Assembly: GCA_050124835.1 (NCBI GenBank)
Contig: JASFEM010000004.1
Coordinates: 3,588-67,587 of the forward strand
Reading direction: 5' to 3'
DNA length: 64,000 nt
Origin: Syntrophobacterales bacterium
Lineage (GTDB): Bacteria; Desulfobacterota; Syntrophobacteria; BM002
Program-made: the position numbers and the translations under genes
The notes under the pieces: model-generated
Seen by the model: the letters and a program-made list of their open reading frames with translations, nothing else
Databases searched by the model: none
What the model was told of the DNA's origin: nothing
In this document: piece after piece, positions 20,165 through 39,593 of the stretch
Layout of the letters: every line of letters begins with the position of its first letter
How positions within the stretch are numbered: the first letter of the stretch is position 1

Positions 20165-20234
20165 AAGTTACAAAATATCTACCGTTTGGAACTCGAATTT
20201 CGCGCTCAACGATAGTGGCTAATAGGAGAATATT

Positions 20235-22831: not shown

Positions 22832-22885
22832 TTTACAACTGGTGCCGTGGGAGTTTCATTTATCGCAAAAACATCACGCCTATTA

Positions 22886-25051
22886 TCACGAGGCAGTATG
22901 CATGCCAGCTTCTTTCACCTCTTCTTCGAGCTCACTGTCTTCCTTAGCCATGACTTCAAGAAAGGCATCCACCACCTTGGGGTCGAACTTGCTGCCAATC
23001 CCTTCCTTGATGAATTCAATGACCGTGTCACGGGCCAGCCCTTCACGGTAGGGACGATCTGAGATCAGGGCATCGTAGTGGTCGGATACAGTAAATATGC
23101 GGGCTCCAAGACTGATATCTTCACCACCGACTCCGTCCGGATACCCACTGCCGTCAAAATACTCGTGGTGTTGCAATACGATGGGTATGACGCCAGCATA
23201 GGCATCAATTGGTTCCAGTATACGCGCACCTATACGCACATGTTCGCGCATGAACTGATATTCATCATCAGTCAACTTGCCAGGCTTATCGAGAATTTCT
23301 GGAGGAATGCCTATCTTGCCAATGTCGTGAAGCAGGCCCCCTCTATGGAGGTCATCCAGTTCTTTTTGATTGAGTCCCATAACCTGGCCGATCCTCAAGG
23401 CGAGCTGGGTTACCCGCTCGGAGTGACCCGCCGTCCAGGCAGATTTGGCATCTATAGCCCTGGCCAAAGCGTAGAGGGTACCCCAGTTTAGTTCGTCCAA
23501 CTCCTCAATCAACCGGGCATTTGACATTGCCACCGCCACCTGATCCGCCAACTGACGAGCCTGGACCGCATCCTCCTCGTTGTACATCTCTGGGTCAAGG
23601 TAGCCCACGGCGATCAAACCTGAAAGCCTCTCACTAACAAACATGGGAAGAGCGAAAAATAACTCTATCCCCATCCCCGCCAGAGAGGCAAGATAGTGGG
23701 GATATTCCTCTGTCGCCTCTATCAGTAATTGTTCAGGATTATCGTTGAGCTTTTGCACCTCTTCAACCGTCAGGGTAACGGGAACCAGCCAGTTTTCACT
23801 CTCCGCGTCGCCGTACTGGATATGCATTAGCCCGGCATTAGGAGATTCAGAGTCGAGCAGGGCCACACCCACACAATCACAGGGTAGCAACTCGCGCATT
23901 CGCGTAAGCACCGTGTCTACGATTTTTCGCGTGTCCAAAGCAGAAAGGATGGCCCGATCTATTTCATTCATGGTAGTAAGGGCGTTGAACTGTCTGTCCA
24001 ATCTATTGGCCATGATATTGAACGACGCCGCCAATTCCTGAAACTCATCACCGCTGGTGACTGTCACCTGAGTCGTAAAATCCCTCTCGGCGATCCTCCT
24101 TGTCCCCTCTTGCAGTTTTTCTAGCGGGATCAGACTCCTCCTAATCTGGCTGATGCTGAGTAGCAGCACCACCCATAAAGACAGAAGGATGACGAGGGGA
24201 AAGATTTTCTTGAATCTGGCCATGGGTGCGAGCACATGCGCTTTGGATTCGCTCAGTACCAGGGTCCAACTCGGCGAAAAAAATCTGAATTTAAGAAATA
24301 TCGACCGGTAGCTCGCTGTATATGTTTTGTCCTCATGTTGCCACTCGAATTGTCCCGCCTTGGCCCCGGTCATCTGGGAGACCACCTCCTCCGTGAACGA
24401 CACCGGGTGGGAGAGGGTTGAAAAGATCATCTGATTATCAGGGTCTAGAACACAAAGCTCGGTCATCGGGGGCAGCGTACTTTCGTCGGGAGTACCCCAC
24501 AGGTAGGTTGGCTTGACCTCTGCCAACAGAATTCCCCGAGTCGGCAACTGCGGATCAAACATTCTTTGCATCAGAATGCGAGCGGGGCTATGCGGGCGAC
24601 TCTCAGTAAAAAGGAGGGTTCTGCCGGAACGTATGTGCTCCTGTTGTGCGGGGCTCAATTGCGGCGGCACCTCCTCTTGGCCCAGAAGAACCGTGGTGCT
24701 TCCCGAATCTTTGATCAGGACAAAGGTCCTGAATCGCTGGTCCAAGCGATCGCGCAGCTCTTGGAAGCCGTGGTTGGTGGTACTGACCGGGCCGCTTAAC
24801 AGCGTCGAAGCGACCATCCGCATTTCGGCATCCAGAAATAGCAGCCGTTCGGAGATGGTGTAGTTCATGGCCTTGGCCGCCTGATGCAGCCGTCTCTGGC
24901 TTTGCTCGGTAAGTTGTTTGGTCACGTGGGTAAAAGAGAGGATGGCGAGAGCGGTGATGGGAAGGAGGGCACAGGTGACGAAAAGCAGAAAAATCCTGCG
25001 CGCCACCTTGCTCCGAAGGAATGTCGAGTCAATTTTCATGATCCGCACCAA
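22886..25051 (-). CDS. membrane sensor protein: periplasmic sensing domain, HAMP, GAF, HD-GYP
   Basis: Two TM segments flank an extracytoplasmic region of about 270 aa, followed by a HAMP-like helix after TM2. The HD-GYP motifs HDIGKIGIPPEIL and HHEYFDGSGYPDG are present. Confidence 0.8.
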   Translation of the reverse strand: MVRIMKIDSTFLRSKVARRIFLLFVTCALLPITALAILSFTHVTKQLTEQSQRRLHQAAKAMNYTISERLLFLDAEMRMVASTLLSGPVSTTNHGFQELRDRLDQRFRTFVLIKDSGSTTVLLGQEEVPPQLSPAQQEHIRSGRTLLFTESRPHSPARILMQRMFDPQLPTRGILLAEVKPTYLWGTPDESTLPPMTELCVLDPDNQMIFSTLSHPVSFTEEVVSQMTGAKAGQFEWQHEDKTYTASYRSIFLKFRFFSPSWTLVLSESKAHVLAPMARFKKIFPLVILLSLWVVLLLSISQIRRSLIPLEKLQEGTRRIAERDFTTQVTVTSGDEFQELAASFNIMANRLDRQFNALTTMNEIDRAILSALDTRKIVDTVLTRMRELLPCDCVGVALLDSESPNAGLMHIQYGDAESENWLVPVTLTVEEVQKLNDNPEQLLIEATEEYPHYLASLAGMGIELFFALPMFVSERLSGLIAVGYLDPEMYNEEDAVQARQLADQVAVAMSNARLIEELDELNWGTLYALARAIDAKSAWTAGHSERVTQLALRIGQVMGLNQKELDDLHRGGLLHDIGKIGIPPEILDKPGKLTDDEYQFMREHVRIGARILEPIDAYAGVIPIVLQHHEYFDGSGYPDGVGGEDISLGARIFTVSDHYDALISDRPYREGLARDTVIEFIKEGIGSKFDPKVVDAFLEVMAKEDSELEEEVKEAGMHTAS

Positions 25052-25054
25052 TAG

Positions 25055-25558
25055 TCAAAATTTATAAGCGAGCCCAATGTATCTGCCATCATTGGCCCGG
25101 ATAATGTCATCATAACTTTGCTCGTTTAAGAGCCCCAATTTGGTTTGCCCGTCTTTTCCCCTGCTGTAGAGATCGTAGTCTGTGTTTATCGGATGATCAC
25201 TCCCGTCCTTGCGCGCGTTTGCTGGCTTTCGATCCGTGGGCGGTCCAGTCATGGTATCTGTGGCGAAATCGAGGTACTCATATGGCCTTCCCCAGGGGTC
25301 GTTAATATAGATCCAGGGGGTCTCCGACGGGACATTATTATCAGGTTCCCTGCCGTTCTCTGCTGCAAACGCAGCGATCTCCGATTGGATGGTATGAATA
25401 TCCCCTATGGCATGGGTAACGTTTGCCCGGTACTTATATTCCTCCAGCATCGGTAACGCAATAGCGAACAGGGTCGCCACTATGGCAACGCTGACCAACA
25501 CCTCCACCAATGTGAAGCCTTGGCAAGATCCTTTCCTCCTTGGATTGAAGGATATCAT
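25055..25558 (-). CDS. prepilin-type N-terminal cleavage/methylation domain protein (type IV pilin or T2SS pseudopilin-like)
   Basis: G|FTLVEVLVSVAIVATLFAIALP is a classic class III signal with Glu at +5. The start is taken at MISFNPRRKGSCQG, while the ORF track extends to 25624. Confidence 0.6.
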   Translation of the reverse strand: MISFNPRRKGSCQGFTLVEVLVSVAIVATLFAIALPMLEEYKYRANVTHAIGDIHTIQSEIAAFAAENGREPDNNVPSETPWIYINDPWGRPYEYLDFATDTMTGPPTDRKPANARKDGSDHPINTDYDLYSRGKDGQTKLGLLNEQSYDDIIRANDGRYIGLAYKF

Positions 25559-25954
25559 CGCATCAATGTGCGATTGCAGCACAGGTGAACATACAGACGA
25601 GCGCTTTAATCCGTGTTTGTCCATACGTTTTCACATGGTGCCGCAGGCTTCTACAATTAGGTTGTCGGTTAGCCTCTGATATCCGACTAATGAATGCTAG
25701 CCGGTGCCGACCTGCCCTGACCGGTAGCGGCACAATATGGGCGGCCGAGAACTTTAATGAACGTCTCAGCCTGGCAGCGCTATTTGAGCAGCCCATCCTC
25801 TCCGTCTAAAAGTACCTTTTATTCCTCTCCGATACGCTATGCCGGTTTTCAGCTCTTAGGGTTAAAAACAGCAAGAACCATACCATTCCATCCATCGCCT
25901 GTCTACCCCGGCAGCGGTAACCTATCCTCCCCCAAAGGGGTGATGCTAAATTCA

Positions 25955-26098
25955 ATTGGAATGGTGGAATAATGGAACAAAGGAATGATGGGAAAAGAGC
26001 GAAAAACTTCACAACTCATGATGCTCAACCGCTCCGTACATTCGATCTACGTACTTAAACCCATTATTCCAACATTCCAGCATTCCAGCATTCCAATA
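25955..26098. repeat. inverted pair of 8-nt tandem arrays (NNNTGGAA)x4-5, about 70-nt spacer, (NNNTTCCA)x4, same family as 5559-5677
   Basis: Forward array ATTGGAA TGGTGGAA TAATGGAA CAAAGGAA TGATGGG at 25955-25992. Reverse array TTATTCCA ACATTCCA GCATTCCA GCATTCCA at 26063-26094. Confidence 0.75.
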
Positions 26099-26396
26099 GC
26101 CCTAGGCTTGTGTTTGCAGCCAAGCCCACAACCTGCGGGACCGACCGGCTCAGAGTGACCAGGTTCTCCATGACTGATTAACTCCAAGAGATTCCGAATA
26201 TTTCGTGGAGTACCCAGACCAAATATCACTTTTTCTCTTGCCAGTTTTTCCGCCTTCTTGTAGCCTGAAATTAGCCCATTTTTTGCTCGCCAGCGCGAAT
26301 TTCATCCTGATTTTCTTTTGCTCTGATGGGCCTGCAATCCAGCATCTTGGACATTTTGGGCAACAAGTTTTAGTGTCCCTTTATGAGGACAACGAA

Positions 26397-28082
26397 ATGA
26401 AAGGCGAAGACAGGAAAAAGGAGCAACTCGAGGGGAAATCGGTGGAGTTGGTCCAGCATCCTGTGAAATCGGAGCACCCGAAAAGTGGATCCATGCAGGC
26501 TAATGAGCCGATTGCCAGCGCCAAAGACGAGTGGGAGCGAACCTTTAACATTATACCGGATCCAATAGCAATCATAGACCGGGACTATCGGATTACATGG
26601 GTAAACAGGGCAATGGCCGAGAGGTTGGGCATTGTTCCCCACGAGGCCGTAGGAATGACCTGTTACCAAAACATCCATGGAATGGAAAAACCGCCATCAT
26701 TCTGTCCCCACACCAAGTTGCTGGCCGACGGTAAGGAGCATACGGCTGAGATTCATGAAACGCGTTTGGGCGGTGATTTCCGCGTTAGTGTCTCGCCTCT
26801 CCGCACCCCTGATGGAAGCATTATCGGGAGTATCCATCTTGCCCGCGATATCACCGAAAGCAAGCAGGTGGAGGAGGAGTTGCGGAGGAGGAGTCACGAT
26901 CTTGGCGAGCGCCTAAAGGAATTGCATTGCCTTTTTGACGTTTCTAGACTGATCGAAAGGCAAGAAATAGCCCGGAGCGAGATATTTCAGGGGATCGTCA
27001 ACCTGATTCCCCCTGCCTGGCAATATCCGGAGATTACTTGTGCTCGTGTCATCCTGGGGGAACAGGAATTCAGAACTGCAAATTTCAGAGAAACCAATTG
27101 GAAACAAGTCAGAGACATTACTGTGCACGGTGAAGTACAGGGATCCTTGGAGGTCTGTTATCTGGATGAGAAACCAGAATGCGAAGAAGGGCCCTTCATG
27201 AAGGAGGAAAGGAGCCTGCTAAATGCCATTGCCGAGCGATTCGGAAGACTCATTGAGCGCGAGGAAGCAGAGGAGGCGCTCCAAGAAGCTTATGATCATT
27301 TAGAGATGCAGGTTGAACGACGTACCGCAGAGCTAGCAAAGGCTAATGAAGAGTTGCAGGTCGAAATAAATGAGCGCAAGCGAGTGGAAGAGGCTTTAAG
27401 AAAGAGTTCGGAAAAACTGGAATCTTTCGCTTACTCGGTTATGCACGACCTCAAGAGTCCCTCTGTTGGAATATATGGGCTTACAGAGCTTCTTAATAAA
27501 CACTACAAGGATGTTTTGGACGAAAGGGGCAGGAACTATTGCGAGCAAATCTTAAAGTCTGCGGTGCACCTTGCCGCTCTCATCGAAAAAATCAATGTTT
27601 ACATCACAACGAAAGAAGCTCCCTTAAATCTTGTGAAAAACAATGTAAAAGAGATTCTTGAGATCGTTAGAGACGAATTCTCACCGCGGCTGGCTGTTCG
27701 TCAAATTGAGTGGCATGAACCTGAAATTGTCCCGGAGGTCAAGGTAGACAAATTGTCGATGATAAGGGTTTTTAGAAATTTTGTGGACAATGCCCTGAAA
27801 TATGGTGGAGAAGATCTAAGCGAGATCAGAATTGGTCATCAAGAATTCGAAGATTTCCACGTTTTTTCTGTGAGCGATAACGGAGCTGGGCTCAAAGGGA
27901 CAGATTATGAAAGGCTTTTTGCACCTTTTCGCAGAGACGACGCCTCTAAAGTGATCGATGGGGCTGGCCTTGGGTTAGCCATTGTAAGTGAGATAGCGGA
28001 GCGCCATAGAGGCAGCGTCTGGGCGGAGCCTGGTGAGGTTAAGGGAACGACATTTCACATATCAGTGTCTAAGGATCTTTAA
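26397..28082 (+). CDS. PAS-domain sensor histidine kinase
   Basis: A PAS region (IAIIDRDYRITWVNRAMAERLG...) is followed by a middle sensory/coiled-coil region. HisKA H-box MHDLKSPSVGIYGLTELL and HATPase_c G-boxes ([15 protein letters not shown]) are present. The start is taken at MKGEDRKK with a GAGGA RBS. Confidence 0.75.
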   Translation: MKGEDRKKEQLEGKSVELVQHPVKSEHPKSGSMQANEPIASAKDEWERTFNIIPDPIAIIDRDYRITWVNRAMAERLGIVPHEAVGMTCYQNIHGMEKPPSFCPHTKLLADGKEHTAEIHETRLGGDFRVSVSPLRTPDGSIIGSIHLARDITESKQVEEELRRRSHDLGERLKELHCLFDVSRLIERQEIARSEIFQGIVNLIPPAWQYPEITCARVILGEQEFRTANFRETNWKQVRDITVHGEVQGSLEVCYLDEKPECEEGPFMKEERSLLNAIAERFGRLIEREEAEEALQEAYDHLEMQVERRTAELAKANEELQVEINERKRVEEALRKSSEKLESFAYSVMHDLKSPSVGIYGLTELLNKHYKDVLDERGRNYCEQILKSAVHLAALIEKINVYITTKEAPLNLVKNNVKEILEIVRDEFSPRLAVRQIEWHEPEIVPEVKVDKLSMIRVFRNFVDNALKYGGEDLSEIRIGHQEFEDFHVFSVSDNGAGLKGTDYERLFAPFRRDDASKVIDGAGLGLAIVSEIAERHRGSVWAEPGEVKGTTFHISVSKDL

Positions 28083-28110
28083 ATATTCTTAACCCCAACC
28101 CCTATCACAT

Positions 28111-28767
28111 CTATCTAGTGATCAATCCCCTTTCCATGGCGTAGGCTGTGAGAGCTGATGCGCTATGGAGATCAAGTTTTTTCATGAGGTTGGCTCGGTG
28201 TTTTTCTACTGTTTTTACACTGATATACAGATAGTCCGCGATCTCCTTGTTCTTATGTCCCTCGGCAATGAGTTTGAGGATTTCGCGCTCACGTTTGGTA
28301 AGGGTATCCCATGGTGAGCCAGACTCAAATCCCTTCTTCCCATCCAAATATCCCTCTATCACCATTTGGCTAACCGAAGGACTTATATAACGCTTTCCCC
28401 CAAGTATACTTCTTATGGCCATCATCAGTTCAACTGAGGAGGCATCCTTCAAAAGGTAACCATCTGCCCCAGCCTGCAGGACCTCGAGAATGAACTCCTC
28501 CGTCTTGTGAACGGTCAGTGCCAATATCCTTGTTTCGGGGCTTCGCTTTTTGATCTCTCTGATGGCCTCAATACCGTTCATCTTTGGCATAGAGAGATCC
28601 ATCAGAATGAGGTCAGGCCCAAGTTGCTCAACACATTGCACGGCCTCGCGGCCGTCTTCCGCTTCTCCCACCACGGTACAGTCCGGATCGGAAGATAACA
28701 AGGCCCGCAGTCCCTCTCTTAATATAGTGTGGTCTTCGGCGATAACAATTTTGTGTTTTTCTCGCAC
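28111..28767 (-). CDS. LuxR/NarL-family response regulator (REC plus HTH_LuxR)
   Basis: Receiver ILMDLSMPKMNG and a C-terminal LuxR HTH (LTKREREILKLIAEGHKNKEIADYLYISVKTVEKH). Confidence 0.85.
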   Translation of the reverse strand: MREKHKIVIAEDHTILREGLRALLSSDPDCTVVGEAEDGREAVQCVEQLGPDLILMDLSMPKMNGIEAIREIKKRSPETRILALTVHKTEEFILEVLQAGADGYLLKDASSVELMMAIRSILGGKRYISPSVSQMVIEGYLDGKKGFESGSPWDTLTKREREILKLIAEGHKNKEIADYLYISVKTVEKHRANLMKKLDLHSASALTAYAMERGLITR

Positions 28768-29009
28768 GGCATCACCAACTATGGTCTGACCATTTCCGTC
28801 TAGAATACAGTCAGAAGTCGCAACTGTAAAGCGCTTCGCCTCAGTTTCGGCTCACCCCCCGACCCGTCGCCTTTTTAAAATACCGTGCAATATGAAAGTG
28901 TCTACCACATTCACCCCATTCTTGCGCGTGAGTCGATGCTTTAAAATGTTTTATCCCCTATAGGGTTATTGACCATGGCATTAGACAATACGGGAACGGG
29001 AAAAATCGC

Positions 29010-29408
29010 ATGCTCCATACCTTAATCGTTGAGGACAACGCTACATTTAGAGAATCGCTCAAGGAGATATTGTGCGACCGATTCCCCTCTCTGGTTGTGG
29101 AAGAAGCTGGGGACGGTAAGGAGGCGCTAGAGAAAATTGAGACCTTTGTGCCGCACCTCGTCTTTATGGACATAAGACTGCCTGGAGCAAGCGGCCTTGA
29201 AATAACCGGCAAAATAAAGGCACGCCACACTCAGATTGTCGTCATAATTCTTACTAGCTATGATCTTCCAGAGTATCGACAGGCAGCAGAACAATTCGGA
29301 GCCGATTACTTCCTTTCAAAAGGGGCAACGAGTGCTAAGGAGATTTTGGCGTTGGTGGGTGATATCTCCACTCGAATAGGTTTCGATTTAAATGGTCCGA
29401 ACCGCTAA
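29010..29408 (+). CDS. single-domain response regulator (CheY-like)
   Basis: 132 aa with receiver fold only. The phospho-aspartate context is VFMDIRLPGASG. Confidence 0.75.
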   Translation: MLHTLIVEDNATFRESLKEILCDRFPSLVVEEAGDGKEALEKIETFVPHLVFMDIRLPGASGLEITGKIKARHTQIVVIILTSYDLPEYRQAAEQFGADYFLSKGATSAKEILALVGDISTRIGFDLNGPNR

Positions 29409-29649
29409 CCCATACGGAAAAGACGCGAGCTCTAATGATTCACCCGGAAGTCTACACTCCATTATTTGCAGAAATACAGTATTTCTCCGCACGATCTACT
29501 CAATTCACCTGATTTACATCTAATTCATCATCAGTAACCTAGGGGTCATATTTACATTCCTACACCCCGAAACCTCAGATAAGAGTCCGTTTCAAGAGAA
29601 TATACGAATGCGGCTCAAGCCGCCGCTCACTCTTTTTAGGAGTACAACC

Positions 29650-30918
29650 ATGCCAGTATCTCTCGATCATGAGTCCTTTAGCTTGACTATTCAAGATTTG
29701 GGCTTTGAGTATGTTTTGGACGGTGCGGAATCCTTTTCTGGGATAGAGCTCAACCCCACTGCAGCAGACCCAGCATTGGATGAGTTCAACAAAAACCAGG
29801 GTCATGCGGGGAAGATTGATCTGCCGAAATCCCACACACCTCCGCAAGCTGAGGAAGAAGAACAGTTTCAAAAAAATCTTATCAGTTTCTATCTGAGAGA
29901 TGTCTCTCAATTTTCTCTGCTAACTCCTGAGCGCGAGATTGAATTGGCCAAGACCATAAAAGAAAGCCAAGAACTGCTCGTGAACCTTGTTGTCCACAAT
30001 TGTGCTGCTGAAAACCACTTCCCCCATCTTCGTCAGAAGATCCTTAATTGGCAAAGCGACGTAGAATCTTATCCAGGATTGCGCGAGAAGATGGTGGTCT
30101 ATATTGTATCCACCCTGGAAAAAGCTGCGGCTCAAGAGGGAGCTTCTGAAATATGCCAAGAATTGAACGCTCGGGTTCGAGACATTGTTGCCAGAATCAA
30201 CTCAGCTAAGGATGAAATGGTTAAAGCTAACCTCCGACTGGTTTTAAGCATTGCCAAGCGGTATCGCGGCCGAGGCCTGAGCTTTCTCGATCTTGTCCAG
30301 GAGGGCAACATGGGGCTGCTCAAAGCGGTTGTTCGATATGACTATACCAAGGGGAACCGTTTCAGCACTTATGCTACTTGGTGGGTACGGCAGTCCATTA
30401 TCCGAGCCATCTATGAGAAGACCAACACCATTAGGCTCCCGGTGCATGTTGTTGAGATGAAAACTTTCTTTTCTAAGATCACTTCAGAACTTACAGAGGA
30501 ACTGGACCGCGCGCCCAGTCCCTTGGAGATTGCCGAACGCTGTGGATACCCTCTTGAAAAAGTCACGATGCTCGCCCAGCTCTCTAATCGACCAGCCTCT
30601 CTCGAAGCGCCGGTTGGACAGATGGAGCAGCGGCTTACTGACGTCATAGAAGACAAGACTATTCCCTCGCCTCTTGAAGGGATCAGCCAACAGGAGCTTG
30701 TGGATGTCATCCGCAAGGTTCTGGCCTCGCTATCTCCCCGGGAGGAGGGAGTGCTCAAGTCACGTTTCGGTATCGATGGCAAGCCCTCACAGACACTCAA
30801 GACTATTGGTGGGCGGTTAGGTGTATCAAAGGAACGCATCCGCCAGATAGAGAAAAGGGCCATCAATAAACTGCGACAAAACTCGCGCTCCGAGCAACTC
30901 AGGTGTTTTGTTGAATAG
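29650..30918 (+). CDS. RNA polymerase sigma-70 family factor, group 2-like (RpoD/RpoS-related) with an N-terminal extension of about 190 aa
   Basis: Region 2 DLVQEGNMGLLKAVVRYDYTKGNRFSTYATWWVRQSIIRAI is near-identical to the RpoD consensus. Regions 3 and 4.2 (LGVSKERIRQIEKRAINKL) are present. At 423 aa it is too short for a primary sigma. An AGGAG RBS precedes the ATG at 29650. Confidence 0.75.
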   Translation: MPVSLDHESFSLTIQDLGFEYVLDGAESFSGIELNPTAADPALDEFNKNQGHAGKIDLPKSHTPPQAEEEEQFQKNLISFYLRDVSQFSLLTPEREIELAKTIKESQELLVNLVVHNCAAENHFPHLRQKILNWQSDVESYPGLREKMVVYIVSTLEKAAAQEGASEICQELNARVRDIVARINSAKDEMVKANLRLVLSIAKRYRGRGLSFLDLVQEGNMGLLKAVVRYDYTKGNRFSTYATWWVRQSIIRAIYEKTNTIRLPVHVVEMKTFFSKITSELTEELDRAPSPLEIAERCGYPLEKVTMLAQLSNRPASLEAPVGQMEQRLTDVIEDKTIPSPLEGISQQELVDVIRKVLASLSPREEGVLKSRFGIDGKPSQTLKTIGGRLGVSKERIRQIEKRAINKLRQNSRSEQLRCFVE

Positions 30919-31020
30919 GGTTATACCGGCCCAATGAATGGATCGGCTTATAGAACCTGATAAATTTAGGCAATTTCAGAGAAGGTGTTTCGCATGTTTT
31001 GGAAAACGGTTATAAACTTT

Positions 31021-31222
31021 GCTCCGCAACTGCTATTGAGGGCTGAGTCATTCCCTCCGCTTACGCTCAGTCTGCTACCTCGCGGGGGGAAGTCCTTCGG
31101 AGCGGAGGCAGAGGCAGCCTGAGCTGCGGATGTGCCAGCCTTTGCTGTTTTGCTTGGGTAGAGTTGTCTCCTTTAAAAGACAAAGGCTGGCCACATACGC
31201 CGCTTCGGGAATATGCCAGCCC
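31021..31222 (-). repeat. copy C (reverse orientation) of an approximately 200-bp dispersed element with terminal inverted repeats
   Basis: Reverse complement aligns to 44346-44552 over both ends (CTCCGC..TTGAGGGCTGAG.CATTCCC ... GGGAATATGCCAGCCC). This copy carries an internal 11-bp-stem hairpin GCCAGCCTTTG...CAAAGGCTGGC. Confidence 0.7.
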
Positions 31223-31330
31223 ACATCTATACGGAGTTAAGTACATAGGCGTTTTCTAAATATACGGCCCCGCTATTATCTTAGCGGTGTGGAATGAAGT
31301 GGCTGCAACATTGGGGTAAGGAGGAAAACC

Positions 31331-31531
31331 ATGCATATTTGTAATCAGTGTGAGAGAAGATTCGCTGAGAGTAAACCTAATATGATCGTTTGTAGCGGTA
31401 AGGAGATCTGTTTTTTCTGCAGTGCAAGCTGTAGGGATGAATGGATGTTCCCTAAGTTATTGCTTGAATGGGTGCGCACCACTGTTCCAAATAGCGAGTT
31501 GGATCGAGCGCTGCAACCATTAAAATCGTGA
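31331..31531 (+). CDS. small TRASH-domain (C-X2-C-X22-C-X3-C) metal-binding protein
   Basis: 66 aa with Cys4, Cys7, Cys30 and Cys34 in TRASH/YHS spacing. A strong AAGGAGG RBS lies 7 nt upstream. Confidence 0.55.
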   Translation: MHICNQCERRFAESKPNMIVCSGKEICFFCSASCRDEWMFPKLLLEWVRTTVPNSELDRALQPLKS

Positions 31532-31544
31532 AGAATAAAGGGAC

Positions 31545-31583
31545 ACGCCTTGGGCTGCCCCCCCAAGGGGGCTTTAGGCGTCT
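31545..31583 (+). terminator. rho-independent terminator-like nested hairpin after the TRASH gene
   Basis: ACGCCTTGGGCTGCCCCCCCAAGGGGGCTTTAGGCGT followed by CTTT. Confidence 0.45.
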
Positions 31584-31630
31584 TTCCTGCACACGGTAGT
31601 CAGTTGGAGTAATGGAGCCCAACGACTTTA

Positions 31631-31738
31631 GATTTTAGAATGCAGATTTAAGATTTAAGAGCTTAGGACCTCATAGTAAGGAAAGCATGTAACCTCAATC
31701 TGGAATCTGCAATCTGAAGTCTGCAATCTGCAATCCTT
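31631..31738. repeat. composite element: forward heptamer array (AGATTNN)x4-5, 34-nt spacer, reverse array (CAATCTG)x6
   Basis: Forward AGATTTT AGAATGC AGATTTA AGATTTA at 31631-31663. Reverse CAATCTG GAATCTG CAATCTG AAGTCTG CAATCTG CAATCC at 31698-31738. It shares the left flank GTTGGAGTAATGGAG with the copy at 32684. Confidence 0.8.
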
Positions 31739-32248
31739 TAGGTCATCACTAGGGCGGTAATCGTTGACTTGTTTGAGCTCTAGTCATGACCCTTCCGCAT
31801 TACCAAGTCTCCGCCTTCCGCAGTGCCTCTTCTATCTCCTCGATCATCTTAAATCCATGGATCAATCCGTTCTCCGTTCACTTAAACGCCCTGCGCATTG
31901 CTGAAAATAGGAAAACCCCACCTCTGCGGCTCCATGCAGAGGTGGGGCGAATCCAGGGAGGTTTCAATAGGATAGAGTGTAAACGGGGAAAATTTATACC
32001 CTACCCGTCTGATAGTATAACCTGAAAATAAGGCAGAGGGAATATGGTGGTCCCGGAGTAAGCAAAAATGGAAGATTGATGCCCCATGAGTCCAAGTAGG
32101 TTAGCCTTTTCGGATAAAAACGGATCCCAAAAGAATCGCCACTAGTAAAAACTATCAAACGGAGTGAGAACAGGAGAATGAGGCTTCTTTACCTACTATT
32201 CTATGTAGTATATGGTTGTAAGAAAACGAAAGAGAGGAGGATACCGTT

Positions 32249-32584
32249 TTGGCATGGACCATCGACGATGCAGTTTCAGATAAGAATCTTAGAGATGCCA
32301 AGATTCATCTTCAAGAGGTGTCTTTTCGCCTCGGCGACCTTACTCCCAAAATTCGGATAAGACTTTTTAGATACCCAGGAGACAAAGAAGTCTACTTTGA
32401 GCAAAGCCACTTCATTCAAACACCCGGTCAAGAAAGTGTATTTTTTCCGGCGATGAAATCTGATAATAGTGAAGCCTATGCGTTGACCCATGCTGTTGAG
32501 GGTCTGACTCACACTTACGAAGCTGCCGTGGAACTGGGGCACGAGCCCTCTGACGTTTGGTTGGTGACTAATCCAGACTTCTGA
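32249..32584 (+). CDS. hypothetical protein
   Basis: 111-aa ORF with reasonable codon usage and no recognisable motifs. It lies between two repeat composites. Confidence 0.3.
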   Translation: MAWTIDDAVSDKNLRDAKIHLQEVSFRLGDLTPKIRIRLFRYPGDKEVYFEQSHFIQTPGQESVFFPAMKSDNSEAYALTHAVEGLTHTYEAAVELGHEPSDVWLVTNPDF

Positions 32585-32683
32585 GCAAAGAATCCAGAAC
32601 AGGGACCTTTCTTTGAGCTGCGTCCAGAGCTAGTCTTTCCTTGGGGCGAGAGTCTGTTGGTGTAATGGAGTAAGGATCATTTC

Positions 32684-32763
32684 AGATTTTAGAATGCAGA
32701 TTGCAGATTTTTTTAACGAATTAAAAACAGCAACTTTAAAACAAAATCTGAAATCTACAATCC
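32684..32763. repeat. second copy of the composite element: forward (AGATTNN)x4, AT-rich spacer, reverse (AAATCTR)x3
   Basis: AGATTTT AGAATGC AGATTGC AGATTTT ... AAATCTG AAATCTA CAATCC. The flanks GTAATGGAG upstream and CAATCCT downstream are shared with 31631-31738. Confidence 0.8.
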
Positions 32764-32775
32764 TCTGAGCTTTGG

Positions 32776-32811
32776 CCTGGCCCAAAGGACCAGGTTACCG
32801 GGACGCTAATG
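32776..32811 (+). promoter_or_regulatory. conserved leader motif CCTGGCCCAAAGGACCAGGTTACCGGGAC..AATGAG, shared with 56833-56880
   Basis: About 29 of 32 nt are identical between the two loci. It contains the imperfect palindrome TGGCCC-AAA-GGACCA. Here the AATGAG includes the annotated start codon of the radical SAM gene. Confidence 0.5.
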
Positions 32812-33816
32812 AGCTCTGAGAATGACCTAAAAGAGTGCACGCTTTGTGAGCACAGGTGCGGCGTGGACCGTGTGGCTGGCGAACTGGGCGTGTGCCGCAT
32901 CGCCGGTCCCATTGTCGCATCGAGAACCCTTCATCCAGCCCCTCCGGAAAGCTATACCATCTTCGTTGCGGGATGCAACTTCAAGTGCGTAGGCTGTCAA
33001 AATTGGACCATATCCCAGTTTCCTGATAATCGGATGCCCATAGAGGGTTATGTGGATCCCAAATCCCTCGCCCAGGAATCCGTAAAAATGCTGGAATCGA
33101 CCGCTGGAATTCTTATGGGCGCCGACAGGATATTCTTCTCTGGGGGTGAACCCACAATCCATCTTCCTTTCATAGAAGAGGTTGTAAAAGAGGCCAGACG
33201 GCTCAGGCCCTCTTTGAAGGTTAATTTTGATACCAATGGCTTTATGACGGAAGAATCTCTCAAAAGAATCTTGAATTTCACCACCTCCATGACTTTTGAC
33301 ATCAAAGCCTTCTATAACGACACCATGAGGGCTATTACCGGGGCCCCGGTTGAACCTGTCCTGAGAAATGCAGAAATAGTAGCTAGAACTGCCAGTGAAA
33401 AGCTGTGGGAATATAGAATAGTCGCAATACCCGAGGTAAACGAGGATGATATTGAACCTCTCTGCCGTTTCCTCGCCTCCATATCTAAAAATCTTCCTGT
33501 CTGTTTTCTCTCTTTCAGACCAAACTATGTTATGGATGAACACCCCGGGGCCACGCGGGAACTCATGAGGCAGTGCGTTGAGCAGGCCAGGCTTGCTGGT
33601 TTAAGAAATGTTACCTATGCCGGTACAACGAATATTCCGGGAAAGGTAGGAGTCCTCCAGAGAAAGGTGGAGGGGGATTATAGCAGAAGAGGGGCCAAGA
33701 TGGCCGCGTCTTACGCTCTTTCAAAAGGCTGTAATACACACCCCAGAGATTGCTCTAATTGTCCGTCTATGAGTACGTGCCCACTCAAGAAGTATTTACC
33801 CCTCAGGAGTTCCTAA
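32809..33816 (+). CDS. radical SAM enzyme (PFL-activase / AmmeMemoRadiSam-like)
   Basis: N-terminal Cys cluster CTLCEHRCGV...GVC, followed by the canonical CNFKCVGCQNW (CxxxCxxC) motif and a GGEPT glycine-rich SAM motif. Confidence 0.65.
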   Translation: MSSENDLKECTLCEHRCGVDRVAGELGVCRIAGPIVASRTLHPAPPESYTIFVAGCNFKCVGCQNWTISQFPDNRMPIEGYVDPKSLAQESVKMLESTAGILMGADRIFFSGGEPTIHLPFIEEVVKEARRLRPSLKVNFDTNGFMTEESLKRILNFTTSMTFDIKAFYNDTMRAITGAPVEPVLRNAEIVARTASEKLWEYRIVAIPEVNEDDIEPLCRFLASISKNLPVCFLSFRPNYVMDEHPGATRELMRQCVEQARLAGLRNVTYAGTTNIPGKVGVLQRKVEGDYSRRGAKMAASYALSKGCNTHPRDCSNCPSMSTCPLKKYLPLRSS

Positions 33817-33894
33817 CCGTCCGGATTCGCAAGTCAAGATTAGAAGGCGGCGCTGAGGCCGGTGGACTTTGGATCACGCGATGCAACTCTTGCC

Positions 33895-33927
33895 AAATGA
33901 CCATTGACTAATGACCAATGACTATCC
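33895..33927. repeat. heptamer tandem array (NAATGAC)x4 between the convergent radical SAM and glycoside hydrolase genes
   Basis: The sequence reads AAATGAC CATTGAC TAATGAC CAATGAC TATCC. Confidence 0.7.
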
Positions 33928-33946
33928 ACAAGCTGTAAGCTTCGGC

Positions 33947-36622
33947 CTAGCTCCGGCCTCCTGATTGCTGGATGAGCTTGGCCACCAGCCCGGTCCAACC
34001 CGTCTGATGGCTGGCCCCTAAGCCGGCACCATTGTCACCGTGAAAATATTCGTTGAACAAGATCAGATCGCGCCATAAGGGATCTCGCTGGAATTTTTCC
34101 AGTCCACCGTAAATCGGACGATCACCCTCGCCATTTATAAGAAAGAGACTCATCAGACGCCGGGACAACTCGGTGGCCACCTCCCACAGAGTCATCCACT
34201 GACCAGACCCGGTGGGACATTCGATTTTCAGGTCATCACCATAGTAGTGATGGAATTTCTGCAAAGACTCAATAATTAGGTAATTCATGGGAAACCAGAT
34301 GGGACCCCTCCAGTTGGAGTTGCCTCCGAACAGACCGCTCTCAGACTCGGCTGGTTGGTAATTGATCGTGTGGGGTTGCCCGTCAACGTGGAAGCTGTAA
34401 GGATGCGTCCAGTGATACTTCGAAACAGAGCGAATGCCATAATCGGAGAGAAACTCATTTTCATCCAGCATTTTCCCCAAAACCCGCACGAGCCGGTCCT
34501 GGGTCAAGATGGCTAGCAGCCGACGCTCGCCAATACCTGGCGTTTCGATACAGGCCAGATTTCCGCTCAAGTGAGGGCGATTGCTGTAGAACCACTGCAT
34601 TCGCCTCTCAAAAACCGGCATGGTTTCCAGGATTTCCGGTTCGATGGTGTCCACTGCAAACAAGGGAAGCAGTCCCACCATGGAGCGCACCTTCAAAGCA
34701 ACGACCCGATCGTCGGGCAGATGAAGCGCGTCGTAGAAGAAGCCGTCCTCCTCATCCCAGAGACTGTGCCCATGACCACCACAGTCGGTCATTGCATGAG
34801 CTATACGCAGAAAGTGCTCGAAAAATTTTGTGGCCACATCCTGATAAACAGGGTTCTCCTTGGCCAATTCTAGAGCTATTTTCAGCATGGACAAGCAGAA
34901 CGCGCCCATCCAGGCAGTGCCATCTGCTTGGTCTATGTGTCCACCTGTGGGTAGCGCTTGGCTGCGATCAAAAACACTGACGTTATCCATGCCAAGAAAA
35001 CCGCCCTGGAAAACGTTTCTGCCGTCTTCATCTTTGCGGTTGACCCACCAGGTGAAATTCAAAAGCAATTTGTGAAAAACTGATTCCAAGAAGTCACGGT
35101 CCGGTCGTCCCCATTGCTTCCCGTCAATTTTGTACACTCTCCAGGCAGCCCAGGCCGGAACCGGCGGATTAACGTCGCCAAAGGACCATTCATAGGCCGG
35201 CAACTGCCCGTTGGGATGCATGTACCACTCTCGGGTAATCAACTCCAGCTGCCGCTTGGCGAAATCGGGATCAACCAGGGTCAGAGGGATGCAGTGAAAG
35301 GCCAGATCCCAAGTGGCGTACCAGGGGTACTCCCATTTGTCCGGCATGGAGATGATGTCGAAGTTAACGAGATGATCCCAATCATGGTTACGCCCGTGCA
35401 TGCGAGATCGTGGTGGTGTCGGTTCGCCAGGATCGCCCTTTAACCATTGTTCTATGTCGTAGTAATAAAGTTGCTTGGACCAGAGCATTCCGGCCAGGGC
35501 TTGGCGCTGCACCCGTTTCTCATCTTCACTTAGATTGTGGGGTTGCACGGCCGCGTAAAACTCATCCGCTTCAGCCAGTCGCTGCCCGAAGATTGCATCG
35601 AAGTTCTGAAATGGCTCTTTGTGCGCCATCTTTGACAATCGTAGTCGGAGAGCGACTGATCCCTCAGGAGTGATGGTTTCCTTAAAGAGCGCGGCCGTTT
35701 TCGTACCCGTCCGCTCAGGGTTGACTGCAGTGGTTTCAGCGTCGATCACATACCGATGAAATGCGTCTTTGACATAGGGATTAGGGTTGGGAAGACCGTA
35801 GAGCCGTTCTGCGTTGGTCTCATTTTCCGTGAAGATCAGCTCCTCCGCCCCTTCGGCATAGAGAAAGTAGGTCCCGGCTGCCGGGTGGTCAACCTCCACC
35901 GTGGATACACCCGCAGTCCTTTCCAGCAGGTGCAGCTGGGGTTTACCCGGTGTGTCGGCCATGGGGCCGTCCTCGTAGCCCCAACTCCAGGTGTTCCTGA
36001 ACCAGAATGTCGGCAAAATATGACACTCGGCCGGTTCAGGCCCACGATTAACCACGGTAATTTTTACCAAAATATCTTCTCGGTCCGCTTTGGCGTACTC
36101 AACAAACACATCAAAGTAGCGATTATCTCCAAAAATTCCAGTATCGAGGAGCTCGTATTCTAAATCGTGGTATCCGCGCCGCCCATTTTCGGCGACCAGT
36201 TCTGCATAAGGAAACTCGCCCTGCGGGTACTTGTAGAGCATTTTCATGTAGCTGTGGGTAGGGGTGCTGTCGAGATAGAAGTAATACTCTTTCACGTCCT
36301 CACCGTGATTGCCTTGCGAGCCAGTGAGCCCAAACAGTCGTTCTTTTAAGATCGGGTCGCGACCATTCCAGAGAGCCAGCCCGAAGCAAAGATGCTGATT
36401 TCGGTCACTGATCCCTGCCAGGCCGTCCTCACCCCAACGGTAGGCTTTGCTGTGGGCATGATCGTGCGGGAAAAAGTCCCAGGCTTCTCCGTCCTCACTG
36501 TAATCCTCTCGTACCGTTCCCCAGGAGCGCTCACTGATATATGGCCCCCATTTTTTCCAATTCGACTTGCGCTCGCGGTATTCGGTCAACCGCTTATGTT
36601 CATCTGTTTGCTTCATGGACAT
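33947..36622 (-). CDS. large (alpha/alpha)6-barrel glycoside hydrolase (clan GH-G, GH63 / glucosidase or mannosylglycerate-hydrolase-like)
   Basis: 891 aa with aromatic/acidic blocks ([46 protein letters not shown]) typical of GH63/GH37-type six-hairpin enzymes. Glucokinase is adjacent. Confidence 0.55.
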
Positions 36623-36705
36623 TCCCCTGCGACCCTGAACTGCCAGGAGACTTGCTTAAGAAATCGCAAATCATTTCGAAAAACACATTTATTAACCTCA
36701 TCACA

Positions 36706-36840
36706 GGTTGGGCTTGAGGGCTGAGGTATTCCCGACGCGGCGTATGTTGCCAGCCTATGCAAACTTGAATGGTTAGGCCGTCCTGCATGTTGCTGCAGAG
36801 GATGGCAATCCCGCGTCTCGCGGGACTCGGGCTGCCAGCT
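36706..36840 (+). repeat. copy B (truncated) of the approximately 200-bp dispersed element
   Basis: GGTTGGGCTTGAGGGCTGAGGTATTCCCGACGCGGCGTATGTTGCCAGCCTATGCAAACTTGAATGGTTAGGCCGT matches copy A over its first 130 nt or so. It lies in the 270-bp gap between the glycoside hydrolase start and the glucokinase stop. Confidence 0.7.
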
Positions 36841-36891
36841 GTCTGCTGTCTGCTTAGAAGTGCTCTATGCTCTCTGCCCCATGCCCTATGC

Positions 36892-37899
36892 TTATTTCGA
36901 CAAGCGGCTAAGGGCACAATGTGCCGCCCCCAACAGGGCCGCCTGCTCGTTGAGAATCACCCGGACAGGTATTTTCTCTAACAATTCACTGAACCTGCCT
37001 TTGTTTGTAAATGCCTGCATAAACATAGATTCCTTCAGTTTAGGCAGGATTTTAGGTGGGATCCCACCACCCAGGTAAACACCTCCCGTCGTCATCGCGA
37101 TTAAGGCCAGGTTACCGGCAACTGCTCCAAATATGGAGACAAACATATTCAATGCCGCCACGCACACGGGATGTTTACCATCCAGTGCGGCTTCGGTAAT
37201 CGCCCTTGCCGGATCCATCTCTTCCATGTTCCTGGCTAACCAGGTAGGTATCCGATGGCGGCCGGTGTCTTTGAGCCATAGATAAATATTTACCAATCCG
37301 GGACCAGACAAGACCCTTTCTACGCTGACGTGCCCAAATCGTTTATGAAGGTAACGCCACAATTTGATTTCCGCTTCGGTGTTTGGAGAAAAATCGATGT
37401 GCCCCCCCTCAGAAGGTACAGGGACGTACTCCCCGTCTCGAAAAATAAGCAATGCCTTCCCCAGACCCGTGCCTGGAGCGACCAACGCAAGGTTTTGCCC
37501 TTTGCGACTTTTTGCCTTGTTCAAGCGAAAGAGCTCTCGACTGTTCAGAAGAGGAATGGCATGCGCCGTGGCTGTCAAGTCATTTATAAGAGAGACATGG
37601 GCCCACTCGAAGCGTTTTTTAATCTTATCTTCGGCGACGTACCACGGCAAATTGGTTGTTTGGCATCGCCCATTTATCACCGGACCCGCAATACCAAAGC
37701 ATGCACTCTGAACCGGCACCTGATGTTTGTCCAAAAATCGTGCGATGATCCACTCCAGATTCGGCGCCTCCCTGCTGGAATAAGTCTCAATTACCTTTGC
37801 AGCAGGACGGGTCCTTCCTTGACGGAAAAAGCCGAGGTTCGTCTTTGTCCCCCCAATATCACCGGCTAAAACAAAAAGATCACTCTCAGGATTTTTCAT
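36892..37899 (-). CDS. glk: glucokinase (Glk family)
   Basis: N-terminal ATP motif LAGDIGGTKTNLGFF, with length and downstream blocks consistent with bacterial Glk. Confidence 0.7.
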   Translation of the reverse strand: MKNPESDLFVLAGDIGGTKTNLGFFRQGRTRPAAKVIETYSSREAPNLEWIIARFLDKHQVPVQSACFGIAGPVINGRCQTTNLPWYVAEDKIKKRFEWAHVSLINDLTATAHAIPLLNSRELFRLNKAKSRKGQNLALVAPGTGLGKALLIFRDGEYVPVPSEGGHIDFSPNTEAEIKLWRYLHKRFGHVSVERVLSGPGLVNIYLWLKDTGRHRIPTWLARNMEEMDPARAITEAALDGKHPVCVAALNMFVSIFGAVAGNLALIAMTTGGVYLGGGIPPKILPKLKESMFMQAFTNKGRFSELLEKIPVRVILNEQAALLGAAHCALSRLSK

Positions 37900-38433
37900 T
37901 GGCTATCTCTCCTCAGAACGTTTGAGCCCAGTTTATCTTGATAATTCTCTCTTCTGAGCTTCATACAAATTAATATAAGACACTTGCTCACAATTTAAAG
38001 GAGGCTGACTCCATAATATTTTACCTTCGCACTTTGCCTGGTCGCCACTTTAAACAAGAAAACCCTGACCGCTTACTCAGAAGCTTGATCAGGGTATAAC
38101 AGTATTACGATGAGAATCGGAGTGTAAAAGTACTCTCGTATTTATACTTTTTGAATTCTTATATAGATCCTTTAAAAGAATATTAAACTGTCATATAAAG
38201 AGCTTTGAAAATGTATTTATGTTTCAAAAATTGTAGATAAAATATTATTGTTCTATTAGTACATTACATATTCTTAATTGATTATGGCATTTCTTATTAT
38301 TTATCCTGATATTTTGGTCAAATTGTGTATAAGATTTTTCAAAAATAAAGAATTTTGTATTTTTTTCTTGACAGATAAAAATTTTTTAGCTAAACACCTA
38401 TGCTAGATATAGTGTAATTTGAGCAAATTTTTG

Positions 38434-38907
38434 CTAAATATTAGCACATTTTTTCACACTAGCGGTTTTTATAAACATTATTGCTAGCTCTTGCTTCTCT
38501 TTTGTTAATCTTTTGATTCGACCACTTAGTTTAATTACATTAGTTCTTACTGGATCAGAAACCTTATCATCCGAGTATAGCTGTAAATCAACCTTTTCAT
38601 CTTGGGCGAAGTTCACCCAATCGTCTAGCTTGACAAGGGCACCGTTGATACTCACATCGACAATGGTGCCCTCAATGGCTTTTTTCGGTTTTTTGTTGGT
38701 GACTACAACCCTGAAAGGCCTGGTTATCCGCTTATACTTTCTTTTTTCATCATCGCATTTTTCGCAATGCTCACAGATTCTTTTTGCGGTTTCGATCTCG
38801 GAGGGTTCAAGTAGCTGGGGAATCAAATAGGCCTTGTCAATGGCTTGATTTTTTGGGCAATGCCCGCTACTGTAATACTGGCACTTTTCCCAGGCTGGCT
38901 CTTTCAT
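38434..38907 (-). CDS. PilZ-domain c-di-GMP receptor with N-terminal Cys-rich (C..C..CxxCxxC) module
   Basis: PilZ motifs RITRPFR (RxxxR) and DVSINGALV (D/NxSxxG). Cysteines at positions 9, 17, 45, 48 and 51. The gene sits in a low-GC islet. Confidence 0.65.
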   Translation of the reverse strand: MKEPAWEKCQYYSSGHCPKNQAIDKAYLIPQLLEPSEIETAKRICEHCEKCDDEKRKYKRITRPFRVVVTNKKPKKAIEGTIVDVSINGALVKLDDWVNFAQDEKVDLQLYSDDKVSDPVRTNVIKLSGRIKRLTKEKQELAIMFIKTASVKKCANI

Positions 38908-39173
38908 AGGACCACCTCCACATGGAGACTCTGGGTCCGGAGCTTAGGGGATCAGGCTGCTTGGTAAATATCAATGCTTGGAGAATAGCTAGGACCGAAA
39001 ATTTTGGATAAATACGTAACTCTTATATTTTGCTATTAAATTATGTTTCTTGTTGATTGTAAATACGAAAAATTCGTAGATTGTGAATTTTTTGTCAGTT
39101 TTTTGTTAATTATTTGTGAAGAATTGGTCATGGTGCATATAATAAGAAAGTAGCGATTTATTTTTTCTTCGAC

Positions 39174-39512: not shown

Positions 39513-39593
39513 ATGGGTCACAGTTGTTGGCTCTTTCACCCTCGATGGTATGTCAGAAAACTTTTCCTGGTTTTGGTTCGGTTTACATCAAAC

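Follow-up and report, generated by a model that had tools for sequence, protein, structure and literature searches.

The stretch of DNA analysed here (hereafter the window; 64 kb) comes from a Syntrophobacterales bacterium (Desulfobacterota) and carries two copies of an intergenic element, each lying between open reading frames (ORFs) of the same strand, in which an array of AGATTNN heptamers is followed by a non-repetitive centre and then by an array of the same motif on the opposite strand. Copy 1 lies at 31545–31806, and copy 2 fills the entire spacer from the stop codon of a 111-aa ORF (32582–32584) to the ATG of a radical S-adenosylmethionine (SAM) gene at 32809. An earlier note on this DNA, made from the sequence alone, had read copy 1 as a discrete dispersed element of about 150 bp, either resembling a miniature inverted-repeat transposable element (MITE) or acting as a structured RNA. 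We conclude that copy 1 is probably one member of a family of short, non-coding, mosaic intergenic repeats with a rapid turnover, of the kind represented by MITEs and bacterial interspersed mosaic elements (BIMEs). This family populates the intergenic spacers of the Syntrophobacterales lineage and of related sediment bacteria. The parts of the two copies are as follows, with the contigs and loci compared cited as L and a number.

31545–31806, + strand: copy 1 (type A mosaic), the whole segment that differs from a 93%-identical relative (L243), homology with which ends at 31543 and resumes at 31807
31555–31587, + strand: module M2, a small G+C hairpin CCCC-N-GGGG followed by GCTTTAGGCGTCTTTCC, fitting the family consensus CTGCCCCCTGAGGGGGCTTCAATGGTCTTTCC
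31588–31626, + strand: module M3, including the octamer mini-array GTTGGAGTAATGGAG (31603–31617)
31630–31657, + strand: left arm of copy 1, four heptamers AGATTTT AGAATGC AGATTTA AGATTTA (Tandem Repeats Finder (TRF) and sequence reading)
31630–31648, + strand: 19-nt family core within the left arm
31658–31695, + strand: centre of copy 1, conserved, non-repeat, type A (AGAGCTTAGGACCTCATAGTAAGGAAAGCATGTAACCT), 38 nt
31696–31737, + strand: right arm of copy 1, six NNAATCT-type heptamers CAATCTG GAATCTG CAATCTG AAGTCTG CAATCTG CAATCCT (TRF and repeat finder)
32585–32805, + strand: copy 2 (type B)
32585–32640, + strand: M1-like module (GCAAAGAATCCAGAAC...CTTTGAGCTG) and degenerate M2, from alignment to the family consensus AAAGAATCCGGGCCCAAAGGACCCGGCTTTGGGCTG
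32656–32670, + strand: octamer mini-array of copy 2, GTTGGTGTAATGGAG
32684–32711, + strand: left arm of copy 2, AGATTTT AGAATGC AGATTGC AGATTTT, with the 19-nt core at 32684–32702
32712–32743, + strand: centre of copy 2, type B, with homologous centres in L132, L188, L212 and L234
32744–32764, + strand: right arm of copy 2, AAATCTG AAATCTA CAATCCT
32776–32794, + strand: module M8, a palindrome CCTGGCCCAAAGGACCAGG rich in G+C and similar to repetitive extragenic palindromes (REPs), 14 nt upstream of the radical SAM ATG

The arrays of copy 1 have the sequence that had been described for them, at slightly shifted coordinates (previously 31631–31663 for the left and 31698–31738 for the right one), and the spacer between them, put at 34 nt, measures 38 nt. 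Both arms were detected by TRF, and 20-mers of the (AGATTGC)n kind were counted 17 times in the window versus 0.02 expected. The two arms had been called reverse complements, which is true of the 5-nt core AGATT/AATCT but not of the remaining positions; the best inverted-repeat pair returned by the repeat finder spans 26 nt at 81% complementarity. The left flank does recur at copy 2, with GTTGGNGTAATGGAG at 31603 and 32656, and in copy 1 it coincides with the mini-array GTTGGAGTAATGGAG, itself a two-unit octamer array (TGGAGTAA TGGAG). The supposed right flank CAATCCT recurs as well, but is the last heptamer of the right arm and not a separate flank. Copies 1 and 2 agree at 90% over 30 nt, within which the 19-mer AGATTTTAGAATGCAGATT (31630 and 32684) is exact, and at 86% over 21 nt of the right ends. 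The ORFs that cross the element are short and lack conservation.

Copy 2 is carried, whole or in part, by four independent assemblies of the same organism (L001, L002, L003 and L219), with one single-nucleotide polymorphism at 32675 in L002, and with L003 beginning at 32683, so that it holds part of copy 2 only; L001 and L219 span copy 1 too. Because the repeat numbers in all four assemblies are identical to those in the window, the feature is not an assembly artefact.

Dispersal, anatomy and turnover of the family

Scanning of metagenome contigs with the 19-mer core yielded at least 119 stretches, and the family counts given below are those among the matches listed, after de-duplication. They comprise 33 type A copies, with a centre like that of copy 1 and the consensus AAAAGCTCAATACCTCCCGGTAAGGAATGCATACACCTC, and 5 type B copies, with a centre like that of copy 2, while about 70 other listed matches are simple AGATTNN foldbacks, single arrays in A+T-rich contigs and chance matches. 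Across the metagenome contigs, at least 38 distinct copies adjoin unrelated genes in both orientations; except for four sets of orthologous contigs, the ORFs flanking type A and type B copies are unrelated, and a tie to one neighbouring gene family was ruled out by an all-against-all BLASTP of 155 neighbouring ORFs. Full-length matches to unlinked copies reach about 80–82% for each window copy, as compared with 62% of copy 1 and 77% of copy 2 matched by the other window copy; for copy 1 this margin is clear, for copy 2 it is small. Dispersal, as the earlier note had supposed in place of independent slippage or a local duplication, was thus borne out by the many further copies, by the closer kinship of each window copy to unlinked ones, and by a 93%-identical genome that lacks copy 2 and holds a different foldback at the site of copy 1.

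A scan of genome contigs with the 15-nt flank GTTGGNGTAATGGAG (14 specified bases) had low specificity, returning mostly chance matches among the 120 loci listed. It did find, in another Syntrophobacterales metagenome-assembled genome (MAG; L022), a true homologue with octamer flank, 19-mer core and inverted AATCT arm. The setting of this copy is unrelated: it runs in the opposite orientation, with an 81-aa ORF on one side and, on the other, ORFs resembling hypA, hypB and hypF (names read from the translations), upstream of the hypA-like genes. No viral contig matched the 19-mer, and a literature search for the heptamer strings returned primer matches only, which are irrelevant. In nine metagenome loci (L126, L133, L135, L140, L153, L161, L208, L228 and L238), the 19-mer sits within a near-identical, conserved stretch that looks protein-coding and has frequent TGA triplets nearby; these were rejected as family copies and taken as chance pattern matches in unrelated sequence.

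The constant unit of the family, namely the left AGATTNN array, the conserved centre and the right array, takes up about 110–135 nt, and the whole mosaic about 220–260 nt. The element is thus a larger mosaic than the unit of about 150 bp proposed earlier, with about 260 nt that differ from the relative L243 at copy 1 and about 220 nt at copy 2. Alignment and module mapping by blastn-short placed the type A centre in 29 of 31 type A copies, and it is well conserved (e.g. GAATGCAT) across copies from many samples. The other modules are optional, i.e. of 36 copies mapped, 16 carry the octamer flank M3, 13 carry M8, 11 M1, 6 M2 and 5 M7. M8 is a REP-like palindrome, CCTGGCCC-NAA-GGACCAGG, followed by TTTTC; M1 is a palindrome resembling M8 and preceded by AAAGAATCC; and M2 reads CCCC-N3-GGGG followed by GCTTCAATGGTCTTTCC. 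The common M1/M8 pattern, CCKGGCCC-NAA-GGACCMGG, is found at the ends of 11 and 13 of the 36 copies, in varying module sets, with M8 at the right end; the M8 hairpin of copy 2 recurs at 56832–56850, and the REP-like unit occurs only twice in the window.

Arms consist of three to six units around a spacer of 0–86 nt (median: 36), and the number of right-arm units differs among family copies and among orthologous loci. Arm polarity, which recalls terminal inverted repeats, is fixed. Of 40 heptamer pairs, 39 have the purine-rich arm in front, the single exception being a regular-expression ambiguity, and so do all 12 octamer pairs, 9 of which are genome-contig loci with hosts in several phyla. 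By our own reading, the ends of the type A consensus, GATTTTAGATTT and AAATCATAAATC, match at 10 of 12 positions. Small palindromic elements are nested inside the type A copies L143, where a TCTG duplication flanks the element, and L156. Both REP-like end hairpins of L146 carry an identical loop insertion (TCGAAGATCCCGC..GCGGGGAAGG), suggesting gene conversion or a mini-element that targets loops.

Turnover was assessed against 20 kb of a closed MAG (CP070735.1, L243), which is syntenic with 21708–40570 of the window at about 93% identity in most blocks. The NCBI names carried by cluster members of the proteins assign the window to a Syntrophobacterales bacterium. It is exactly at the repeat-bearing spacers that homology with L243 is lost. 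L243 lacks copy 2 and has a spacer of 46 nt in place of 224 nt, and the same short spacer is found in L244–L247; the motif AGAA(A)TCCA, which stands at the left of copy 2, occurs at the empty site of L243 as well. Copy 1 (window 31544–31806) has as its counterpart in L243 129 nt forming a foldback of different units, five AAGGTAC and five of GTACCTT type. Where the window has an octamer foldback (25923–26160), L243 has a single AATCT arm and a REP-like hairpin, and the spacers 30942–31266 and 36681–36865 likewise differ. Orthologous metagenome loci differ by whole heptamers, with one unit more in L222 than in L180 and L200, and two more in L216 than in L192, which is what slippage would produce.

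The sequence GAGGGCTGAG(T/G)(C/T)ATTCCC... is repeated at 31040–31075 and 36712–36745, in two spacers that are absent from or different in L243, and probably represents a further family of dispersed elements. The block with the radical SAM and glycoside hydrolase genes (32805–36681 versus 10379–14255 of L243) is only 82.7% identical, as against 92–94% for the other syntenic blocks; this suggests recombination or allelic replacement, with repeat-bearing spacers as its bounds on both sides. About 100 nt at 22116–22217, with an inverted repeat CAGGCCAT...ATGGCCTG that is not built of heptamers, are missing from L243 and are another small insertion/deletion polymorphism.

Folding, transcription signals and orientation

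A hairpin of about 35 bp had been predicted for copy 1, to be checked by folding. The hairpin is there but modest: copy 1 folds at −39.2 kcal/mol on the + strand (z = −2.0) and −35.3 kcal/mol on the − strand (z = −2.1), into a chain of 5–7 bp helices separated by internal loops rather than a continuous stem of that length. In copy 2, the + strand had z = +0.35 and the − strand −2.3. The mean z of 37 copies was −2.1 forward and −2.2 reverse, 27 of them being more stable on the reverse strand. For 30 type A copies, RNAalifold yielded consensus energies of −2.0 and −4.0 kcal/mol, with no covariation or compensatory changes.

The arms were further split into core (AGATT) and variable (NN) positions, with units paired in the register of the natural hairpin. 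In the heptamer arms of 38 foldbacks, 89% of the core positions matched, and the variable positions were complementary in 41.6% of cases versus 39.4 ± 2.9% for shuffled partners; in the octamer arms of 12 foldbacks, the variable positions reached 43% versus 48 ± 3%. By our own reading, any of C, T, A or G may precede the innermost AGATT, and the opposite position does not change to match. The arms thus share a motif and do not co-evolve, hairpin potential being a by-product wherever arrays of one motif converge.

A crude, greedy longest-ORF gene call gave flanking gene orientations of ++ 10, −+ 6, +− 6 and −− 5, so that the copies have no preferred orientation relative to transcription. Rfam gave no match at gathering thresholds over the whole window, and only chance-level ones (E ≥ 0.7) in 31300–33000 at permissive thresholds. 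Neither copy holds a site resembling an intrinsic terminator, and the T-run behind M8 is weak, reading GGTTACC in copy 2 and, in many others of the family, GGTTTTC. By Rfam, covariation across copies and orientation, the element does not pass as a structured RNA and cannot be demonstrated to be an RNA gene, which leaves that part of the earlier reading without support. Two candidates within the centre were also rejected. The scan showed no sigma-70-like promoter site, nor was sigma-54 spacing seen. A small reverse-strand ORF (GAGGTG, resembling a ribosome-binding site, and then ATG) has 17 codons in the consensus and 5 in the window copy, and is also ruled out by unit insertions and deletions that shift its frame.

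The only terminator-like site in 31000–33000 is a hairpin at 31915–31948 on the − strand, between copies 1 and 2, with 13 bp, nine of them G-C pairs, followed by TTTCCTATTT. No convincing minus-strand gene lies upstream of it, a weak, sub-threshold match to PsrR1 overlaps it (E = 0.73), and the hairpin may mark where an unannotated small RNA or small gene ends.

Other arrays in the window and in distant phyla

Several further arrays and foldbacks lie elsewhere in the window.

56668–56850, + strand: third mosaic element on the same scaffold (M1, M2, M7, M8; CCCCAAGGGG) with different heptamer arms, of AAGGCAC type at 56712–56732 and of GCCTTNN type at 56766–56800
61787–61860, + strand: truncated type B element, with the CCCCATAGGGG hairpin, GGATTTT AGATTGC AGATTTT and the start of a type B centre, without a right arm
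5546–5676, no strand assigned: octamer foldback of the GGGGCTTTGCCCC hairpin, four TGGAATNN and four NNATTCCA (arrays 5561–5676); fold z = −4.2 (+ strand) and −5.5 (− strand)
25930–26095, no strand assigned: octamer foldback of the CCCCAAAGGGG hairpin, four TGGAATNN and four NNATTCCA (arrays 25957–26095); fold z = −8.2 and −7.1
19995–20165, no strand assigned: GGCACAA-type and GCCTTNN-type heptamer arrays, inverted relative to each other and separated by about 115 nt
19050–19077, + strand: single arm of AGATTGC units within a short spacer separating same-strand ORFs
20672–20744, + strand: single-arm AGATTGY array of 10.7 units between two convergent ORF ends

A small GGGG/CCCC hairpin precedes both octamer foldbacks. 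The array at 20672–20744 has a super-period of 21 nt, i.e. three heptamers, that is better kept (94% matches) than its 7-nt period (80%), and octamer arrays show a 16-nt super-period (window 5642–5677; L039). Owing to these super-periods, array expansion seems to proceed by blocks of two or three units. Intergenic arrays with other units (CCTTRNA, GTAGYCA and its complement, GTGCTTA, GCTGTCT and CTATGCY) lie at 53195–53245, 55421–55442, 51200–51230, 49983–50012 and 36831–36892, and at least six different unit sequences occur within this one window. Several of these other units recur in metagenome loci, such as CTATGCY in L215 and L243, and GTGCTTA in L139, as if all drew on a limited and shared vocabulary.

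The octamer unit of the left flank of copy 1 is itself an array-forming repeat in distant phyla. Arrays of TGGAGTNN were found in 26 of the 120 genome-contig loci listed, and in 10 of these 26 an inverted NNACTCCA array follows. According to the record titles, hosts of the paired arrays belong to Nitrospirota, Latescibacterota, Verrucomicrobiota, Calditrichia, Binatia, Thermodesulfobacteriota and several 'Deltaproteobacteria', and single TGGAGTNN arrays occur in Bacteroidota, Planctomycetota and others. A Rhodopirellula MAG (L039) carries a single-arm TGGAGTAA/TGGAGTGT array of more than 20 units that reaches the contig end, and a Prolixibacteraceae MAG (L048) has three arrays inside 250 nt.

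Known repeat systems and competing explanations

MITEs, e.g. the Correia/NEMIS elements of Neisseria, are short, non-coding, dispersed intergenic elements with inverted ends, which are polymorphic for presence and absence and form hairpins in transcripts. The present family resembles them in its size (below about 600 bp and non-coding), inverted ends, dispersed copies and insertion polymorphism, and its anatomy fits the MITE-like character proposed earlier. It differs in having, where a MITE has unique and near-perfect terminal inverted repeats, arms built of a tandem 7-nt unit whose variable bases are not complementary. No target-site duplication was visible at the flanks of the window copies, which have diverged, and neither a transposase nor a cognate insertion sequence was found among the neighbours in L001 and L243. 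REP, BIME and REPIN sequences are mosaics of short (20–40 nt), imperfect G+C-rich palindromes in extragenic spacers, often just past stop codons, with a composition that varies among strains, and they number hundreds per genome alongside an associated RAYT (TnpA-REP) gene. Here the modules M1 and M8 are REP-like palindromes with a T-run, the copies are extragenic mosaics and their composition at a given site varies among strains, while the central heptamer-array foldback sets the family apart. In architecture alone, long inverted ends made of short tandem repeats around little or no internal sequence also recall Foldback (FB) transposons and the subterminal arrays of Ac/Ds and En/Spm, in which short tandem repeats bind the transposase; those elements, however, are eukaryotic, much larger and have known transposases.

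The closest published precedent, compared by description, is the paired hepta- and octanucleotide arrays of Geobacter metallireducens (PMC2700814). These multicopy intergenic 'putative global regulator binding sites' (classes 1–3) are pairs on opposite strands, made either of octanucleotides GTTGCTYN in tandem sets of four (48 sites) or of heptanucleotides MTYCTGA in sets of five (16 sites); the distance within a pair is variable, and insertion sequences occur at fixed distances (PMC2700814). The present arrays resemble them in being multicopy, intergenic and paired on opposite strands at variable distance in tandem 7- and 8-nt units, and both hosts are former Deltaproteobacteria. By the published description, however, the units differ (here AGATTNN, TGGAGTNN, AAGGCAC and others), and a conserved non-repeat centre and REP-like modules are peculiar to the present family, which is also, beyond that description, widespread in metagenomes and polymorphic between close relatives. 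The STRR heptamers of heterocystous cyanobacteria and the TAACTGA repeats of Beggiatoaceae, Cyanobacteria and Bacteroidetes are likewise abundant, intergenic and patchy across phyla, with no known mechanism of spread, and TAACTGA sets (169 direct, 1 indirect) lie a few nucleotides upstream of start codons (PMC4679880). Our arrays share the abundance of intergenic tandem heptamers and the patchiness across phyla, but have different units, form convergent pairs round a conserved centre and hold no fixed relation to start codons.

As members of a mosaic repeat family, the copies would be spread or exchanged between intergenic sites through a trans-acting activity, be it a transposase, a recombinase or recombination between the repeats themselves, which would recognise the convergent motif arrays or the foldback that they can form, and the arrays would grow and shrink by replication slippage. 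If the 111-aa ORF and the radical SAM gene form one operon, copy 2 would be co-transcribed and bring an imperfect hairpin and a REP-like stem into the mRNA, whose effect would be a side effect and not the reason why the element exists. What the copies display is dispersal, presence/absence and replacement at orthologous sites, and unit-number polymorphism, with neither structural covariation nor orientation bias. Several observations sit uneasily with a mobile repeat, nevertheless. Neither an autonomous element nor a transposase with matching ends turned up, although a few arm pairs 0.4–1.4 kb apart were left unexamined, and no transposase is among the Pfam-annotated neighbours in L001 and L243. 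The junctions of copies 1 and 2, as defined by L243, show no target-site duplication, their flanks having diverged, and nothing convincing was seen at L136 and L137 either; at copy 2, L243 differs by replacement of the entire spacer and not by a clean interruption. One and the same scaffold carries different heptamers, which a model of one transposase and one end sequence does not predict; nhmmer on the window found only copies 1 and 2; and the conservation of the centre could reflect function rather than recent spread.

We consider it unlikely, although the case is not negligible, that the element acts at the RNA level, as a hairpin in a 3′-untranslated or intercistronic region that sets mRNA stability, termination or downstream translation, or as single-stranded heptamer sites for an RNA-binding protein (a cold-shock protein, S1 or a CsrA-like one). 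The same-strand setting of both window copies, with copy 2 filling an intercistronic spacer, would suit such a role, as would the REP-like hairpins with short T-runs in forward orientation 14–30 nt upstream of starts (32776 and 32809; 56832 and 56881), the fixed polarity, by which any transcript of a foldback has the purine-rich arm first, and the average folding better than shuffles (z about −2); such a role has been argued for another heptamer (MacGregor 2015, PMC4679880). Against it stand the lack of orientation bias towards flanking genes, a consensus folding energy near zero without compensatory changes, pairing of variable arm positions at chance level, no promoter-like site, a sole terminator-like site of 31000–33000 that lies elsewhere, no Rfam family and a close relative that does without copy 2. 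Rather improbable, too, is that the convergent arrays are chromosomal binding sites of a nucleoid-associated or regulatory protein (IHF/HU-like or other) and that this function maintains the family. Arms that conserve only a 5–6 nt motif, without co-evolution and in fixed polarity, speak for protein binding, along with the 21-nt and 16-nt super-periods and the recurrence of the same units in distant phyla, and the analogous G. metallireducens paired arrays were read as putative IHF/HU sites (Aklujkar et al. 2009, PMC2700814). That interpretation is itself a guess, however; at least six unit sequences per 64-kb window would call for many proteins or one that reads shape, and the gain and loss of sites between 93%-identical genomes is unlike conserved regulatory sites.

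A purely local origin, by one tandem duplication of about 1.05 kb with independent slippage, has next to no probability left. The copies are indeed 1,054 nt apart, and a few weak extra direct matches (D5, D6) occur at similar spacing, but dozens of copies in unrelated contexts refute it, the two copies are of different subtypes, each with closer relatives elsewhere, and the upstream ORFs (66 aa and 111 aa) differ in length and, as far as a reading of their translations goes, no alignment having been run, show no evident similarity.

More speculatively, and with a likelihood that we rate low, the AGATTNN element may be one face of a wider system, in which a limited vocabulary of 7- and 8-nt units (AGATTNN, TGGAGTNN, TGGAATNN, AAGGYAC, CTATGCY, GTAGYCA and others) is laid down as convergent arrays of fixed polarity in the intergenic DNA of many environmental phyla, and a dedicated trans-acting machinery writes, copies or reads them. 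Arrays that are interchangeable on one scaffold and swapped at orthologous sites, with no pairing constraint between arms, would point to such machinery. Candidates for it would be a family of site-specific recombinases or transposases, an activity for templated synthesis, or a nucleic-acid-binding protein that reads the repeats, and the unexplained TAACTGA and STRR repeats might be the same phenomenon.

Taken as a mosaic repeat family, the element is a new and well-delimited member of a loosely known kind, the tandem hepta- and octanucleotide arrays, and adds to the poorly understood arrays of Geobacter, cyanobacteria and Beggiatoaceae a widely distributed family with a conserved centre, two subtypes and optional modules. 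For the Syntrophobacterales lineage, it explains why long, repetitive and non-homologous intergenic spacers separate the genes of genomes that are otherwise 93% identical, and it warns against calling such hairpins small RNAs, riboswitches or terminators. Any mechanism has to accommodate arms of fixed polarity that do not co-evolve, and foldbacks of different heptamers that are exchanged at one and the same site. Interchangeable heptamers on one scaffold, laid in fixed polarity from units common across phyla, leave room for a more general mechanism, and a dedicated enzyme or binding protein behind these arrays would, if true, be new.

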